In this document: positions 56,299 through 64,000 of the stretch, piece by piece
Layout: the number at the start of each line of letters is the position of its first letter
Numbering within the stretch: position 1 is the first letter of the stretch
Assembly (NCBI GenBank): GCA_030583825.1
Contig: CP129477.1
Coordinates: 10,259-74,258, forward strand
DNA: 64,000 nucleotides
Direction: 5' to 3'
Source: Candidatus Dojkabacteria bacterium
Lineage (GTDB): Bacteria > Patescibacteriota > Dojkabacteria > GCA-002793355
Notes under the pieces: generated by a model
What the model was told of the DNA's origin: nothing
The model's database searches: none
What the model saw: only the letters and a program-made list of their open reading frames with translations
Program-made: the position numbers and the translations under genes

Positions 56299-57765
56299 TT
56301 ATACACCCTCGTGTCCCTTGATTCTGTGTGCCTGGGTTCCATGCGCATTATAGAAATCAACGGCAACTTTCAGTTCTTCGTGGTCTTTTGCATATTCTTC
56401 GAGAGAAACTCCCTGTTTCCATGCTTCATATGACTGAACAACCGCAGTTGTACCCGATTGTGTTCCCATTGGATGAGAATGAACTCCACCACCCATTGTC
56501 ACAATGAAATCAATTGTTCCCATTACTTCAATAAATTCCGGAAGCAAGACTGGATTAAGTCCGCCAGAAATAATTGGTGCCATTTTTCGGACAACTCTCC
56601 AATCATGTTCCATGGTGTCAAGGTGGGTAACATCAGCTTGAGATTTTACAAATGATCGTAGATTCATTGCAGCCTTTGTTTCTTCATCTTTGATCATCTT
56701 CTGTAGATCACTGTCAGCATGAGGAATTTTGCTCCAAATCTGCGTAAAGAACTGGCCTTCCGCCCGAACATTTAATGCCTGCTTTGCGGCCATCATGTCA
56801 ATATCTGGTGTTCCTGCCATTTTCCCAACACCCGCAGTACCTGTGTGCATTCCTGAAGCACCTGCAAGACGTCCAAACATTGTAAGAACAGGAACTGTCA
56901 TTCCAAATGGATTTTCTTCGCGGGTAATTGCTCCGTGACCTGCGCGGTGGAAATGTAAGAATACATCTGGATATCGTCGGCGAATTGTTTGAATAGCTGT
57001 CCATCCGGCTGTAATACCATCAACAAGGAAAGCATAGCTACCTGGCTTCATTTTGCTGACAACATACTCTGCTCGACGAATCATTGTGTCGAAGTCAACA
57101 GCAGAAATATTAAATGAGTGAACTTTTGTTCTTCCAGTTTTATCTTCTGCACGATCCATTGCCATTCTTACGGCATCTACCATATGTGTAAACGGTGAAA
57201 AATGCTGGTTCGCCTGCGGTTCATCATTTTTAACGAACATTCCACCACCAACCCAGAAGTCATAACAAAGTTCTGCATATTCATTTGGTGTTAAACCAAT
57301 CTTTGGCTTAATAATTGTTCCAAGAATTGGGCTATCAAAAACTTCGAGATAGTTTCGCATATCGTCGATCGTTGTTCTTGGACCATCGTAATGTACAAGC
57401 ATTGATGGTGGGAAATATACGTCTAACAGTCGGCATCCTTTTGATTCGCCGACACCCATAATGTTTCCTACAATAAATGTGAGGATATTTTGAACATTTC
57501 CATCACTATCGAAGATTTCCCATGGAAATGCTATCCAAATCAGGTGATTCTTTTCGTCCACTTTGTAAACGCGAGCATTGAGCTCAAGTGAATAATTAGT
57601 TGCAGATCCAACTTTCAGGTTTGAGCCTGTTGAAGCCTCTGCCGCGATTTCTGTTGCAAGATCGTCTAACGCAATTCCATCCTGTGGGATAGCACGATAG
57701 ACAGCTAACAGATATCGGTCGTTGTGTACGGATTCGTCTCCGAGAAAAAGGTACTCTTTTTGCAT
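56299..57765 (-). CDS. rbcL: Ribulose-1,5-bisphosphate carboxylase large subunit, form II/III (archaeal/CPR type).
   Basis: TIIKPKIGL (KPKxG), GGGMFVKNDE (carbamyl-Lys with D/E metal ligands), HFHRAGHG, GMHTGTAGVGKMAG, SGGLNP and GGGVHSHPMG. There is no small-subunit gene. Confidence 0.8.
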   Translation of the reverse strand: MQKEYLFLGDESVHNDRYLLAVYRAIPQDGIALDDLATEIAAEASTGSNLKVGSATNYSLELNARVYKVDEKNHLIWIAFPWEIFDSDGNVQNILTFIVGNIMGVGESKGCRLLDVYFPPSMLVHYDGPRTTIDDMRNYLEVFDSPILGTIIKPKIGLTPNEYAELCYDFWVGGGMFVKNDEPQANQHFSPFTHMVDAVRMAMDRAEDKTGRTKVHSFNISAVDFDTMIRRAEYVVSKMKPGSYAFLVDGITAGWTAIQTIRRRYPDVFLHFHRAGHGAITREENPFGMTVPVLTMFGRLAGASGMHTGTAGVGKMAGTPDIDMMAAKQALNVRAEGQFFTQIWSKIPHADSDLQKMIKDEETKAAMNLRSFVKSQADVTHLDTMEHDWRVVRKMAPIISGGLNPVLLPEFIEVMGTIDFIVTMGGGVHSHPMGTQSGTTAVVQSYEAWKQGVSLEEYAKDHEELKVAVDFYNAHGTQAHRIKGHEGV

Positions 57766-59018: not shown

Positions 59019-59387
59019 TATTTAGCTTATTCACTAATAGTATAAGAATCTATCTAATGAATCAAACTGTTCTTGCTCAGGCTTCTTCGTCTCGTTAATC
59101 AAAATCGGGGCGATCGTACTATGTACGAACGACTACTTCCTTCTATTGATAAGATTATCTCATGTTTTAAAGAGTTTGAGTATAAGTGGAAGTTCTTATT
59201 AGAGCTTCCTACCTTGGATTTAAATTGTTAGGGCGATTGTTATGATTTATAAAAGAGGGAAAGGTGCTAGTGTTTATTATAGTTCTGGGTTTAGGAATTA
59301 TGGGTGCTTAACGAGTATGATTTTCTTACCGTTTCAGATAATTCTATATGCGTTGCTTTATGTTATAAAACCTCACAGGAAAAATCC

Positions 59388-60749
59388 TCAATGAGTTATT
59401 CTTTCTTTAGCAAATTTTTCAAGTAATACACCGCTTGGATGATATGCAAGCGATACTAATTTATTCGCAAGTGCTATTGGTAAAAGTGAATTGTCAAACA
59501 TATCGCATTTAAGCTTATCTATAGTACTCAATATTGACTTAAGATTTTTAAAATCATTTTCCTGAGGGTCTAGCACAATACGTTCATTTTTGACTGGTAT
59601 TGTAACCACATATACACGACCTGATTGAGATTTATAAATAACCTTACCTCCGTAATATGATGTTCTAGCATATGGTTCAATACTATCACCACTTTTAGGA
59701 AGTATATATTTGTAAATATATTTATTACTTAAAAGTAAACATTGACCATTTTTCAATAACGAATTGTAATCCTGAATATCTTTTGTAATTTCTAAGGCAT
59801 GTTCTACAAATGCTCCACTTTTCTCTAAACCTGCAATAAACAAGTTATGCTTATCTGCAAGATAATTACACAAAGATCGGAATGGTTTATGCATATTGGC
59901 TGTTTGCCCGAAAAAAGCGAGAGGCCCATCTTTTAAGAAGAATAGCTTGTTCAATAAGGAGGGTTGTTGCTCCAAAATATATTTTATATAGTGAGCCATC
60001 ACTATTTGTTCAATTAGTGTGGTTACATAGCCTAATATTCCGCCAGCACCTATTTCATCATCAACTGCCTCATGTAATCTAAATATATCGATTAAGAATA
60101 GCTCGTTATCACAATTGTTGCATTTAAAAGAAAAATCATCTCCGATTTTTTCTCGTTCAATTTTAATGTTTCTAGTCGAACAATGAGGGCAATTAGCAAG
60201 AACATAATTCGATTTTGGTTCTTCAAGGAATTCTTCAAATACAAGCCATTTTAATGTCGTATAAAAATCACGCTTATCCCGTTTGAGAAGAAAGAACTGA
60301 TGAATTGTTTTTCTGATAGAATCAGTTAGAGAACCTGCATCAGAATAAACCATATTCTTAATAGGTAAGACCAATTTGAACCGTTCTAACTGCTTAAATT
60401 TCGCCATATCTTCTGGGAATATGAATTCAGAATCGCTTATCTCTTGAAGATGCTCCAAATCAAAAAACAACGCCCCGAATTGAAAAAAAGCTATTTTAGA
60501 AGAAGGAAACTTTTTCTTTACAATTGCTTCTGTGTATCCTCCATCAATTGCAATTACATGTTGCAGATCACTTGCAACTCCCCCAATGTCAATTAGAGGA
60601 GTAACATCGGTTTCGAGAACCTCAGTTTGCTCTTTTGGCAAAGCACAAGTTGATAAATAATCTGAAACTGTAGGATCATTTATCACATGTGAGTGTGAAC
60701 TTTTACTCGCATATTCATTTGGTCTGTTAGAGTTTGATGTGTATGACAT
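59388..60749 (-). CDS. NurA-like (RNase H-fold) nuclease candidate with an inserted Zn-ribbon.
   Basis: 453 aa. HVIAIDGGYTEA (NurA motif I hhhaiDGS), CPHCS...CNNCD (four Cys), and later KDGPLAF (DG.L motif II-like). It lies 2 bp downstream of the HerA-like gene. Confidence 0.35.
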   Translation of the reverse strand: MSYTSNSNRPNEYASKSSHSHVINDPTVSDYLSTCALPKEQTEVLETDVTPLIDIGGVASDLQHVIAIDGGYTEAIVKKKFPSSKIAFFQFGALFFDLEHLQEISDSEFIFPEDMAKFKQLERFKLVLPIKNMVYSDAGSLTDSIRKTIHQFFLLKRDKRDFYTTLKWLVFEEFLEEPKSNYVLANCPHCSTRNIKIEREKIGDDFSFKCNNCDNELFLIDIFRLHEAVDDEIGAGGILGYVTTLIEQIVMAHYIKYILEQQPSLLNKLFFLKDGPLAFFGQTANMHKPFRSLCNYLADKHNLFIAGLEKSGAFVEHALEITKDIQDYNSLLKNGQCLLLSNKYIYKYILPKSGDSIEPYARTSYYGGKVIYKSQSGRVYVVTIPVKNERIVLDPQENDFKNLKSILSTIDKLKCDMFDNSLLPIALANKLVSLAYHPSGVLLEKFAKERITH

Positions 60750-60750
60750 A

Positions 60751-62766
60751 TTACTTATCTGCTAAAAACCTATCAATCTGGACAGGAACAACAAATGGAT
60801 TAGTATATGTTTTTACTCTTACAAAGCCCTTATCACTATCTGAACTAAATCTTACAAGAGAATCAGCAAAATCCGAGAAATCATAATATTTTCTCAACTC
60901 CCTTATTTCTTCCTCATTGTTAAGATGTGCGATAAACCAATTTTGAGTATTTTTCAAAATATTTGCACTAATAGAGCTGACCTCTTGGGTAGCATATATT
61001 AAACCTAAGTTAAGTTTTGCACCTTCTTTAGCAATTCTATTGTAGATTTGGCTAAGATCTTTCTCGTCTTTTTTAGGGAATAGATTATGTGCTTCTTCAA
61101 AATAGAACTGGATAAAATTCGTTAGTTTGCTTTCAATGAATTTATTCATTGAATCCTCAAAGATCTTCCTACATATTCTTTCTGAATAAAGATTTTGTAT
61201 TTCTGGATCTCCCTGCGACAGATCAACAATGACGATCTCACCCTTTCGCAGGCTTTCTATTACTTTATCCTCGAAAGGTTTATCTGCAACACTCGTATGT
61301 AATTTAATTAGTGGTTTTAGTTTATGATATCCACTTACAAAACTGGATGAGCCAGCCTGTTTTTTACGTGTGAGAAATATGATTATCGACTTCAATTCTT
61401 CATCTGCCCATTCTTTCCCTTTTTCAGTCTTATATTTTTTTAGGTAATCAATCTCGTCATATTTATCCCAAAGTTGACTAAACCAAATAACTGCATCATC
61501 AAGTGAGATTCCTTTTGATGGATCAATAGGACTAGATTCCCTAACAGCTTTATTTATATCCGCTTGTCCACTAAAGGAGACTTTGAAATTAGATGGTAAA
61601 GAAAATCCCGCTTGAAACAAGCAACATTGATATGCAGCAACTTTTCTATCATACCTTACCTTCACGCTCATATCTTGATCATAATCCTCTGGCTTTTCCA
61701 AGTTAATAGATAGAAAACCGTTAAGATAATCCGAACTTTCACCAATTTCTTTGAAATGCCTTTGAATTAAAGAAAATCCTGATAAAACTTCTGTATAAAA
61801 ATTGACTTTCATTACATTAAAGCCTTCTTTCTCTAATACGCTGTACCTAGTTACTTGTTCCTTATAAAGTTCATAAATGGCAGTACCTTCATCCTGTTGA
61901 TTAGCATTTGCATACTCCCCATTAATGTCAAAAATAATCTGCCCGACTTTTTGTCGTGGAGCTGACCCCTCAAAATTATCTGTACCAGAATCACTATCAT
62001 CTTGAGTATTTTTAGCTTTTGATGATATTTCCTGTGTTGCTTCAATTATCTTCTTAAGGGTATTAGATTTTCCTGTTCTAGTCATACCGAATAATGCAGT
62101 TCTCTTGCCTAAGAAGTCCTTTGGGTTAATATAGACTTCAACATCTTCTTGATCATATTGAAATCTTCTACTAGAACTATATCTTACCTTTCCAATTGGA
62201 AAGTCATATTGACTTCCGACAATATCATCCTTGCTTCTTAGGTTGACGATATATCGAAGCACGTCACCACTTGCCTTATAAACAACATAGTTGTTCGCTG
62301 AATAGAAGTTCTCAACATCTGCACCAAACTCTATTCGTTCTTTACCCTCTTCACCAATTTTATAAAATGTACCTAAAATCCTACACTCAAGACCTGAAAA
62401 ACTAAATTCATATCGTGTAAAAGTATCTAATTTGCTCTGTTGTCCATTCGTAATATCAACGTTATCTTTGTAATACTCAATCATTGAACTAACGACATCA
62501 TTATCTGTTGGTAGCTTAGATGGAGCTATTGCTCTTAAAAGTAAAGCTTCTTTCCTGTCAGGATCAGAATCACCTGTATAAAAAGCTAATAAAAAAGAAC
62601 CATGAGGAATACCACCTGCTCTATGCTTCCAAGCATCTGAGATTAATATTTGAGCCTTTGAATAATCTAAATAATATGGTTTCCCAACTAAAAAATTCTC
62701 GTTTATTCCTTTCTTTAGAATATCTATTGATAATATTTGATCAATTTTGTCTTCGATTAATGCCAT
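60751..62766 (-). CDS. HerA/FtsK-superfamily ATPase (HerA-like helicase or translocase).
   Basis: 671 aa. N-terminal barrel region, Walker A ALFGMTRTGKSNTL, IIFDINGEY (HerA vLifDpHGEY), Walker B FYFEEAHNLFP (DEAH-like), and LGLIYATQEVSSI. Confidence 0.65.
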   Translation of the reverse strand: MALIEDKIDQILSIDILKKGINENFLVGKPYYLDYSKAQILISDAWKHRAGGIPHGSFLLAFYTGDSDPDRKEALLLRAIAPSKLPTDNDVVSSMIEYYKDNVDITNGQQSKLDTFTRYEFSFSGLECRILGTFYKIGEEGKERIEFGADVENFYSANNYVVYKASGDVLRYIVNLRSKDDIVGSQYDFPIGKVRYSSSRRFQYDQEDVEVYINPKDFLGKRTALFGMTRTGKSNTLKKIIEATQEISSKAKNTQDDSDSGTDNFEGSAPRQKVGQIIFDINGEYANANQQDEGTAIYELYKEQVTRYSVLEKEGFNVMKVNFYTEVLSGFSLIQRHFKEIGESSDYLNGFLSINLEKPEDYDQDMSVKVRYDRKVAAYQCCLFQAGFSLPSNFKVSFSGQADINKAVRESSPIDPSKGISLDDAVIWFSQLWDKYDEIDYLKKYKTEKGKEWADEELKSIIIFLTRKKQAGSSSFVSGYHKLKPLIKLHTSVADKPFEDKVIESLRKGEIVIVDLSQGDPEIQNLYSERICRKIFEDSMNKFIESKLTNFIQFYFEEAHNLFPKKDEKDLSQIYNRIAKEGAKLNLGLIYATQEVSSISANILKNTQNWFIAHLNNEEEIRELRKYYDFSDFADSLVRFSSDSDKGFVRVKTYTNPFVVPVQIDRFLADK

Positions 62767-62771
62767 GCTTT

Positions 62772-63752
62772 TTAATTTAATAATTTAAGTTTTGTTGTTT
62801 TTAACTCTGGATCTTGCAATCTAATTTTGGCTTGTTCACTATATTCATCTGAGATATCGATGCTAACCCATTTTCGATTCAATCTCTCAGCACAATAACC
62901 AGTAGTATTACTACCTGCAAAGGGATCAAAAACAAGATCATTTTTATCAGTTAAGAACTCTATAAAAAATGAAGCCAGTTGTGATGACATTCTCGCAGGA
63001 TGGGGTTTAATTTCTTTTTGCCTACATGCCTTTAAAAAGTAATCATTTGAACTAGTATTAGCAAAACTCATAATATTTTGAGGTAGTCTTAAATCCCTCT
63101 CAGGATCAATTTGTTCAAATTCTAGCAAATTATGCATTATGCTTCCTCCGTTATCAGAAAGAAAACTCTTTTCTCCAATAACATGTTCTGATGGTCTTTT
63201 CCCAGAGTTATACTTCTTTTTTTTCAACAGTCGTTTCATGCTTTGACTATATGGTCTCAATATCTTAGTATTATCTGCCTTGGGAAAATCCGATTTTGAC
63301 ATCCACCAAACATGAGTATAACTATCAACTGTCCTAATTCTATTAACTGTGACCCATTGTGCTGGGGAAGGTAATCTGGAAGGGTTATAACAAATGAATT
63401 CTTGACACAATCTTAGGTCTGCATCTTTACTTCCAACAAAAGCTAGTAAGGACTCAAGGTGTAACAATGACTGTACAGGTCGCCCAGGCTCCCAAGCATT
63501 ACCTAATTCTATTATGATCGATCCGTTTGGAGCTAAAAGATCAGCAAAAAGAGGTGAAAGTTCTGCAAACCATTTTTTATATTCTTCGCCCTGTTTATTC
63601 CCATACTTCTTTTTACTATTCAACGGAAAAGGAGGTGAGGTAAGTATAAGTTGTACCTTGCCTTTAAACTTTTTCCCAAAAGCCCCTTTAATGTTTTTTA
63701 TGGAATCACCAATATAATATTCTCCTAGTTTTGTTTTATATAGTTTATTCAT
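62772..63752 (-). CDS. Beta-class DNA methyltransferase (N4-cytosine or N6-adenine; the SPPF motif favours m4C).
   Basis: Motif IV LILTSPPFPL is N-terminal, and motif I VFDPFAGSNTTG is C-terminal. This order is typical of beta-group amino-MTases. It is 6 bp upstream of the HerA-like gene. Confidence 0.7.
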   Translation of the reverse strand: MNKLYKTKLGEYYIGDSIKNIKGAFGKKFKGKVQLILTSPPFPLNSKKKYGNKQGEEYKKWFAELSPLFADLLAPNGSIIIELGNAWEPGRPVQSLLHLESLLAFVGSKDADLRLCQEFICYNPSRLPSPAQWVTVNRIRTVDSYTHVWWMSKSDFPKADNTKILRPYSQSMKRLLKKKKYNSGKRPSEHVIGEKSFLSDNGGSIMHNLLEFEQIDPERDLRLPQNIMSFANTSSNDYFLKACRQKEIKPHPARMSSQLASFFIEFLTDKNDLVFDPFAGSNTTGYCAERLNRKWVSIDISDEYSEQAKIRLQDPELKTTKLKLLN

Positions 63753-63801
63753 TTTTTATCCTCAAGTCTTTTTAGTAGAAGGCTAATTAAAGATAAATAA
63801 T

Positions 63802-64000
63802 CTAATGCTTTTTGCATATCCCGTAAGCTACAATATCATGTCCTTTGGGATTTCTAACTCCCTGCATCACTCCCATAAAAATATGCATAAATCCTTCTTG
63901 TTCATCAATATCAGATTGAGATTTAAGGTCATTCAGCTTAATTTTAGGATTAGTCTGATTAAAAGCACTCGACATTAATGACTTACCATCCAATTCCAAT
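63802..64000 (-). CDS. 3' end of a gene running off the window. The encoded C-terminus carries an Rx4H (HEPN-like) motif.
   Basis: ...GVMQGVRNPKGHDIVAYGICKKH*. The Met shown in the ORF track is probably internal. The frame is open to the window edge. Confidence 0.25.
   Translation of the reverse strand, partial: LELDGKSLMSSAFNQTNPKIKLNDLKSQSDIDEQEGFMHIFMGVMQGVRNPKGHDIVAYGICKKH

Follow-up and report, generated by a model that had tools for sequence, protein, structure and literature searches.

A three-gene cluster lies at the far end of a 64,000-bp stretch of the genome of Candidatus Dojkabacteria bacterium (assembly GCA_030583825.1, contig CP129477.1, positions 10,259 to 74,258 of the forward strand; hereafter the window). 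An open reading frame (ORF) scan placed all three genes on the minus strand, where they encode an N4/N6 DNA methyltransferase (MTase; 62772..63752, 326 aa), a HerA/FtsK-superfamily ATPase with a DUF87 domain (60751..62766, 671 aa) and a putative NurA-fold nuclease (59388..60749, 453 aa). The original prediction for this DNA had described three tightly packed genes at exactly these positions; the gaps it gave as 6 and 2 bp are 5 bp between the MTase and HerA genes and 1 bp between the HerA and NurA genes. The motifs it had quoted (SPPF, FDPFAGS, GMTRTGKS, EEAH, IAIDGG, KDGPL, a zinc ribbon and an R-x4-H in the next gene upstream) are intact, and translation confirmed their coordinates. In the deposited annotation, the three products appear merely as a NurA-domain protein, a DUF87 protein and a site-specific DNA methyltransferase. 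The evidence reviewed below suggests that the trio is probably a self-contained, mobile, three-gene module of restriction-modification (R-M)-like immunity, in which a HerA-NurA motor-nuclease complex most likely replaces the usual restriction enzyme.

By its sequence, the MTase is a beta-class N4/N6 methyltransferase resembling M.PvuII, the N4-cytosine methylase of the CAGCTG system. It matches the Pfam family N6_N4_Mtase (PF01555) at 1.3e-30 (107.5 bits against a cut-off of 26.7) and the PADLOC profile MTase_II (PDLC03323) at 3e-83. Further, it aligns full length to M.PvuII (PDB 1boo; 8.9e-68, residues 4-321), with 38.8% identity to the M.PvuII gene of pPvu1. The catalytic motif IV, SPPF (residues 39-42; 63627..63638, minus strand), precedes the S-adenosylmethionine (AdoMet)-binding motif I, FDPFAGS (residues 275-281; 62910..62930, minus strand), which is the beta-class order, and the latter motif aligns to the same motif of M.PvuII. 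The S-P-P-[FY] motif is typical of enzymes that form N4-methylcytosine (m4C). An N4-cytosine product is therefore possible, as is a CAGCTG-like target, which is suggested by the SPPF motif together with the 39% identity to M.PvuII. Within the module, this enzyme is predicted to be the self-marking component.

The second gene encodes a HerA/FtsK ATPase, as judged by Pfam, Walker motifs and fold. It matches DUF87/HerA (PF01935) at 2.4e-15 (57.7 bits against a cut-off of 23.2) and the HerA models of PADLOC at up to 2.3e-23 with partial coverage, and there is also a partial match to mad8. The Walker A motif GMTRTGKS (62065..62088, minus strand) lies in a segment, G227 to N235, that is invariant in 31 homologues, and E557, E558, A559 and H560 of the Walker B/catalytic glutamate segment EEAH (61087..61098, minus strand) are likewise invariant. 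TdpA is the best match both among PDB sequences (8wet, 1.7e-18) and in Foldseek (5e-15), where it is followed by HerA from HerA-NurA, DUF4297-HerA and Sir2-HerA complexes; all of the top Foldseek matches are HerA-type proteins. The ATPase family is 61-78% identical across phyla, and the protein is predicted to act as the hexameric double-stranded DNA translocase of a restriction complex.

The 453-aa protein was identified by homologue scanning and fold comparison after direct profile searches gave nothing useful: the protein itself has no match to Pfam NurA at E<=1 and no useful profile match in Pfam, NCBIfam, PADLOC or the PDB sequences. Of 40 homologues (51-60% identical), however, 17 match Pfam NurA (PF09376; best 2.1e-8). 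An AlphaFold model built on the homologue alignment has a NurA-type RNase-H-like fold (predicted local distance difference test (pLDDT) score 83, predicted template modelling (pTM) score 0.85), and fold comparison of the Foldseek type found TdpB to be the closest among solved structures. The earlier view of this protein as a NurA-like RNase-H-fold candidate is thus upheld. Seven residues (D69, E227, D230, D274, E309, H317 and D416) are invariant in 40 nuclease sequences and are candidates for the catalytic centre. The putative first catalytic aspartate, D69 on RNase-H strand 1, lies in the IAIDGG segment (60537..60554, minus strand), and D274 lies in the KDGPL segment (59919..59933, minus strand). 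A Cys4 zinc-ribbon insertion, CPHC...CNNC (residues 187-213; 60111..60191, minus strand), gives weak zinc-ribbon profile matches; its cysteines are nearly invariant, being lost in few homologues. The protein is predicted to be a NurA-fold nuclease and the DNA-degrading effector of the module. Its family is large: more than 2,100 clusters at 90% identity were scored, the best 120 of which are all more than 50% identical, and the nuclease profile recovered 952 representatives of a 50%-identity library at E<=1e-3 and 305 at E<=1e-30.

The relatives of the trio show that the three genes belong together. A strict pattern scan with one genome per species found 169 relatives, from which 80 loci (numbered with the prefix L) were fetched and their ORFs searched with the window proteins; five of these break off at a contig end, and the other 75 are informative. 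The carriers include Patescibacteria, Bacteroidota, Bacillota, Chloroflexota, Cyanobacteriota, Planctomycetota, Pseudomonadota, Deinococcota, Methanosarcinales and others. HerA is adjacent to the nuclease gene in nearly all loci. A PvuII-family MTase adjoins HerA-NurA in 66 of the 75 informative loci, and in 64 the MTase, HerA and NurA genes are collinear on one strand; the PvuII-family MTase is divergently oriented in L020 and lies downstream in L050. Another N6_N4 methylase is found immediately upstream in L087 and a D12-class methylase immediately downstream in L065, and, counting all classes, an MTase is adjacent in about 90% of the informative loci. No generally conserved fourth gene was found among the fetched loci. 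Across 53 intact loci, where the median pairwise identity of the MTase is 61%, the pairwise identities of MTase and NurA are correlated (Spearman 0.41; none of 500 Mantel permutations as high), as are those of HerA and NurA (Spearman 0.69), and the three proteins co-evolve.

The association also survives at 24-32% nuclease identity. Locus L090 encodes a 412-aa MTase, a DUF87 protein and NurA; the megaplasmid pDF308 of Deferribacter desulfuricans carries an MTase gene, a DUF87 gene split by an IS200/IS605 insertion sequence (IS) element and a NurA gene; and a haloarchaeal (Halorarius) plasmid has the order DUF87-NurA-MTase. In a temperate phage of Vibrio cyclitrophicus, HerA, NurA and a D12-class MTase lie between integrase and excisionase, and in the deposited annotation of this prophage the methylase alone is labelled as an R-M component. 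The PF01555 methylases of the distant clades have 404-425 aa. For two divergent nuclease homologues (P0329 and P0389), the contigs are too short to show the gene context. Co-conservation of the trio, the lack of which would have refuted the original prediction, is therefore supported by the 66 loci, by the correlated identities and by the distant relatives. The interchangeability of the marking enzyme across the wider family would be expected if the HerA-NurA chassis needs a mark more than it needs a particular enzyme.

The integrity of the three genes differs among loci. HerA is split or interrupted in about nine genome loci (L017, L033, L043, L046, L049, L053, L057, L062 and L084), in Deferribacter pDF308 by the IS200/IS605 element (L094:3126-6924) and in the Vibrio prophage, where it forms two ORFs (L096:1309-3502). 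No locus has a split NurA gene, and a split MTase gene occurs in two only. The disruption of HerA resembles the decay pattern of restriction genes, and assembly errors in metagenome-assembled genomes may contribute.

The module is horizontally mobile, as seen from its high nucleotide identity in different flanks and its low GC content. The window copy is 97-99.6% identical in nucleotides to ten other contigs, and the flanks are unrelated beyond about position 59102. Downstream of the module lie RuBisCO and membrane-protein genes in the window, peptidase S51 and thioredoxin genes in L001 and type II secretion/pilus genes in L003. Members from different phyla and domains are 46-61% identical, and the distribution is patchy and phylogenetically incongruent. 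GC content is 33.4% in 59102..64000 as against 38.5% elsewhere in the window (lower than in any of 217 windows of equal size), which bears out the impression of an AT-richer segment; GC at third codon positions is about 24% in the segment and 28-34% in neighbouring genes.

The segment had been thought to end at a 370-bp non-coding junction (59019..59387). The stretch is indeed non-coding (369 bp), but the limit of the mobile segment falls inside it, at about 59102, where identity to other contigs ends (59098-59184), and not at its edge. The rest of the junction, about 285 bp of non-coding DNA behind the NurA stop codon (59102..59387, neither strand assigned), forms a tail that accompanies the module in all close relatives, as judged by nucleotide identity, and may be a recombination site, a small RNA or a small ORF. 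L001 and L002 have a second copy of this tail (236 bp, 88.6% identity) 1.8 kb further downstream, and the two copies bracket the peptidase-S51 segment (L001:11316-11598 and L001:13171-13406). Neither Rfam nor tRNA scans gave a match in the junction or the island, promoter and terminator scans remained at background level, and a repeat search of the junction returned short repeats only, probably due to chance. There is no integrase in the window segment, the upstream end of which lies beyond position 64000.

Upstream of the MTase, the 3' part of a further gene runs off the window (63802..64000, minus strand). The HEPN-like Rx4H motif noticed in this ORF is confirmed as RNPKGH, and the gene belongs to the Ymh family (Pfam Hypoth_Ymh, PF09509, 8.7e-16; TIGR02391, 8.5e-12). 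Compared with L001, L004 and L011, it has a 1-bp deletion just after the RNPKGH motif (compare L001:6702-7010), and the resulting frameshift takes away some 24 residues of the C-terminus and abolishes the stop/start overlap (ATGA) with the MTase gene; the window copy is either a pseudogene or the product of a sequencing error. Full-length relatives have 249-264 aa, and their stop codon overlaps the MTase start as ATGA. Ymh was considered as a core fourth component and rejected, being linked to the trio only in the Dojkabacteria/Saccharibacteria lineage and in L024, the one distant trio locus that has it. It is a lineage-specific accessory gene, translationally coupled upstream of the module in the Dojkabacteria lineage.

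The context beyond the window was read from close relatives, on contigs that encode an identical 453-aa protein. Two gene orders were found: helix-turn-helix (HTH) protein, Type III Mod, Type III Res, Ymh, MTase, HerA and NurA in one, and Type I R-M, GmrSD, Ymh, MTase, HerA and NurA in the other (L001:1701-6954, L004:1-7001 and L007:1-6998). The presence upstream of a complete Type III R-M system, or of a Type I R-M system with a GmrSD-type Type IV enzyme, suggests that the window ends inside a larger defence island. Among the fetched loci, recurrent neighbours with a PADLOC match are Septu PtuA/PtuB (14 loci), Type III Mod/Res (nine loci), AbiEi/AbiEii, GajB-like helicases and HNH nucleases; serine recombinases, which have no PADLOC match, are further recurrent neighbours of the trio. 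Mre11/Rad50 was found neither near the window genes nor among the recurrent neighbours of the 80 loci, whose neighbouring ORFs were profiled in part. The neighbours are thus defence genes and recombinases, and the earlier view that this is not a canonical repair cluster holds.

The MTase has no ordinary cognate restriction endonuclease. True PvuII-family plasmid systems encode a small endonuclease beside the MTase, as on pPvu1 and on an Apilactobacillus plasmid, whose methylase and endonuclease are 62% and 50% identical to those of PvuII. In tblastn searches, R.PvuII, the Apilactobacillus endonuclease and C.PvuII had no match in the window, and R.PvuII had none in any fetched trio locus; in addition, the ORF list of the window leaves no spare gene for an endonuclease in the module. 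The absence of a cognate enzyme anticipated by the original prediction is therefore what was found. Thus, the module shares with the classical PvuII system of pPvu1 (R.PvuII, C.PvuII and M.PvuII) a methylase homologous over its full length but lacks the R.PvuII-like endonuclease and the C-protein of that Type IIP system, and its ATP-dependent HerA-NurA pair presumably takes over the restriction role of R.PvuII. A PvuII-like MTase, 51% identical to that of the window, also occurs on an Aurantiacibacter plasmid (L099; NZ_CP015441.1, 38331-49152), where the genes after it encode a DEAD/DEAH helicase, a 'DNA modification system-associated small protein' and an AAA/ABC ATPase. Such a helicase/ABC-ATPase system suggests that the PvuII-like MTase lineage serves several ATP-dependent restriction machineries as a module.

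TdpAB is the closest solved structure for both the ATPase and the nuclease of the module, in the case of TdpB at the level of fold only. According to the titles of PDB 8wet and 8wfd, TdpA and TdpB occur together on DNA as a HerA-type hexamer and a NurA-type dimer. Later papers cite tdpABC as the third phosphorothioate R-M system, with tdpC as its single modification gene. Phosphorothioate on self DNA reportedly inhibits both the translocation and the nuclease activity of TdpAB. The two systems differ in their mark: TdpABC uses the phosphorothioation enzyme TdpC, whereas the sole modification gene of the module encodes an AdoMet-dependent, M.PvuII-like base MTase. The module proteins are also larger (671 against 586 aa for the ATPase and 453 against 358 aa for the nuclease); the ATPase has an additional helical region, and the nuclease carries a zinc ribbon. 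Unlike TdpABC, the module family extends beyond thermophiles. A search with the aligned TdpA fragment recovered gene fragments only, on short or IS-disrupted contigs.

Other HerA systems resemble the module in part. The end-resection complex of archaea and Deinococcus has the same two-protein HerA-NurA architecture and folds; the module differs in being linked to a methylase, mobile, located in defence islands and without Mre11/Rad50, and it forms a distinct, highly conserved subfamily. In Sir2-HerA (Nezha), DUF4297-HerA and MADS (mad8), a HerA-family ATPase likewise partners an effector in anti-phage immunity. The effectors of the first two differ from the NurA nuclease, however, and those systems have no methylase; the module, in turn, has none of the other seven MADS genes, and its PADLOC matches cover only part of the ATPase. 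Neither a Sir2 or DUF4297 effector nor the eight-gene MADS set was found in the module with Pfam and PADLOC.

Co-conservation, co-evolution, defence neighbours and the absent endonuclease all support the R-M-type defence logic that the original prediction had proposed for the trio. The trio itself is real and widespread, and from sequence and genomic context we infer a restriction-modification-like function. In such a system, the M.PvuII-like MTase would mark host DNA with m4C at a short fixed site, possibly CAGCTG or a close variant. The HerA-like ATPase would form a ring translocase and dock the NurA-like nuclease, as in HerA6-NurA2 and TdpA6-TdpB2, and the ATP-driven complex would thread DNA and degrade it if the methyl mark were missing. 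Methylated self DNA would block loading, translocation or cleavage, and unmarked phage or plasmid DNA would be restricted. The mark may be read by the MTase acting as a specificity subunit, as in Type III systems; alternatively, reading may involve the helical insert conserved in the ATPase or the nuclease's zinc ribbon.

Several observations weigh against this interpretation. For every family member, defence is read from sequence and context. No methylation-reading domain was identified in HerA or NurA, the AlphaFold monomer model of the ATPase is mediocre (pLDDT 67), and a profile search of PDB sequences with the nuclease returned nothing, so that its likeness to TdpB is one of fold only. 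The nuclease has no model in PADLOC 2.0, nor is the trio listed there, which favours novelty yet gives no independent support. The host window shows no depletion of CAGCTG (eight sites observed against 9.1 expected). In the pooled flanks of 66 trio loci together with positions 1-59100 of the window, the observed-to-expected ratio of CAGCTG is 0.52 (the fifth most under-represented of 64 six-base palindromes), as compared with 0.75 (rank 35) in loci without a PvuII-like MTase. This depletion around trio loci is a weak hint at most, as the effect is small (p about 0.04) and confounded by taxonomy. Further, the sole genetically studied NurA-HerA-methylase cluster, that of ICEth1 in Thermus thermophilus, is tied to DNA donation rather than to defence. 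Lastly, a Nostocales clade of five chromosomal loci (L022, L029, L030, L035 and L039) and three plasmids, including a Tolypothrix plasmid (L097; NZ_CP050441.1, 52067-55429), has an XRE-HTH gene, HerA and NurA with no adjacent MTase, which indicates that HerA-NurA can persist without a linked methylase. In one of these loci, L029, a pair of genes of the cyclic oligonucleotide-based anti-phage signalling system (CBASS; cyclase and SAVED) directly follows HerA-NurA.

The Nostocales variant would suit an arrangement in which HerA-NurA is a stand-alone defence or DNA-degradation module blind to methylation, and the methylase is a separate gene, whether orphan, anti-restriction, epigenetic or the remnant of a Type II system without its endonuclease. 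Sir2-HerA and DUF4297-HerA act without modification, and the class of the MTase partner varies among clades, both of which are in keeping with a passenger methylase. We nevertheless regard this as unlikely, given the adjacent MTase in about 90% of informative loci, the conserved order and tight spacing, and the co-variation of MTase and NurA identities, which no Mantel permutation in 500 equalled. That the association is kept down to 24-32% nuclease identity, although MTase families and gene orders vary, is what a functional need for 'some methylase' would produce. In L020, the module's own MTase has been replaced by another PvuII-family enzyme, one even closer to M.PvuII (48.5% identity), which also bears on the possible CAGCTG-like target.

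The precedent of ICEth1 allows a different function. Its tdtA operon comprises Tth111II, the NurA-like TTC1878, the ATPase TdtA (TTC1879) and the N4-N6 methylase TTC1880, and its published role is in DNA donation during transjugation, for which the operon is needed; deletion of nurA lowers transfer by 4-5 orders of magnitude. In gene content the two are alike: both cluster genes for a nuclease of the NurA type, a hexameric ATPase resembling HerA and a PF01555 methylase on a mobile element. They differ in order (NurA-HerA-MTase with a Type IIG enzyme in ICEth1, MTase-HerA-NurA in the module) and in protein size (377 and 410 aa in ICEth1). By analogy, the trio might be a DNA-mobilization module whose NurA and TdtA-like HerA pump process and extrude donor DNA, the methylase being a passenger or protecting the transferred DNA. 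The clear mobility of the window module would agree with this, as would the 404-425 aa of the divergent-clade PF01555 methylases, close to the 410 aa of TTC1880. However, the trio shows no consistent linkage to conjugation, relaxase or integrase genes and is found in the tiny genomes of Patescibacteria, in archaea and in a prophage, where it has a moron position. It is surrounded by defence systems, and the closest solved complex, TdpAB, is itself part of a defence system. An ICEth1-like role in donation fits these contexts poorly and appears quite improbable. A housekeeping end-resection pair for double-strand breaks, as in archaea and Deinococcus, that lies beside a methylase by chance would agree with the folds of canonical NurA and HerA and with the name given by NCBI to family members ('DNA double-strand break repair nuclease NurA'), but it is very improbable indeed in view of the patchy, phylogenetically incongruent distribution, the location on plasmids, a prophage and a low-GC island, the lack of Mre11/Rad50 near the window genes or among the recurrent neighbours of the 80 loci, and the repeated disruption of HerA, unexpected in a core repair gene.

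An R-M-like immunity module therefore remains the preferred interpretation of the trio. It is possible, although we put this forward tentatively, that the family represents a distinct class of ATP-dependent R-M. In such a class, a HerA6-NurA2 ring machine, possibly with the MTase as specificity subunit, would read base methylation and processively destroy unmethylated DNA, while methylated sites would signal 'self' or stop the machine. Over evolutionary time, one HerA-NurA chassis would have been combined with interchangeable marking enzymes, namely PvuII-like m4C, permuted N4/N6 and Dam-like methylases and the phosphorothioation enzyme TdpC.

Besides Ymh, the neighbours of the module within the window are membrane-protein and RuBisCO genes. 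A gene for a 488-aa protein resembling the RuBisCO large subunit (56299-57765, minus strand; identity read from the translation) lies about 1.6 kb from the island and is flanked by two genes for multi-pass membrane proteins, in keeping with the Patescibacteria origin of the DNA.

The original prediction knew of no described MTase-HerA-NurA defence trio. A full-text literature search, with most subscription journals outside its reach, indeed found no description of such a defence system; the statement needs qualification in so far as the precedents of TdpAB and ICEth1 exist and narrow the novelty of the trio. Surveys of HerA/FtsK 'capture' systems by the Aravind laboratory describe other architectures, and papers on m4C R-M in Deinococcus merely cite HerA-NurA and have no bearing on the trio. 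As R-M logic and the TdpAB type of effector are already known, the trio is not categorically new.

If the interpretation is correct, the trio would represent a widespread R-M architecture whose 'restriction enzyme' is a HerA-NurA motor-nuclease, extending over at least 305 nuclease clusters (50% identity, E<=1e-30) and 169 species-representative genomes in bacteria and archaea, and on plasmids and a prophage. The recent TdpAB finding, which concerns an exotic modification of the DNA backbone in thermophiles, would be broadened to ordinary base methylation throughout the prokaryotes, and the trio would offer a concrete system in which to ask how a ring translocase senses an epigenetic mark. The NurA-TdtA-methylase operon of Thermus ICEth1 would call for re-reading, and the hidden Markov model sets of defence finders would need a new model. 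Proteins automatically annotated as 'DNA double-strand break repair nuclease NurA' would then often be immunity genes.

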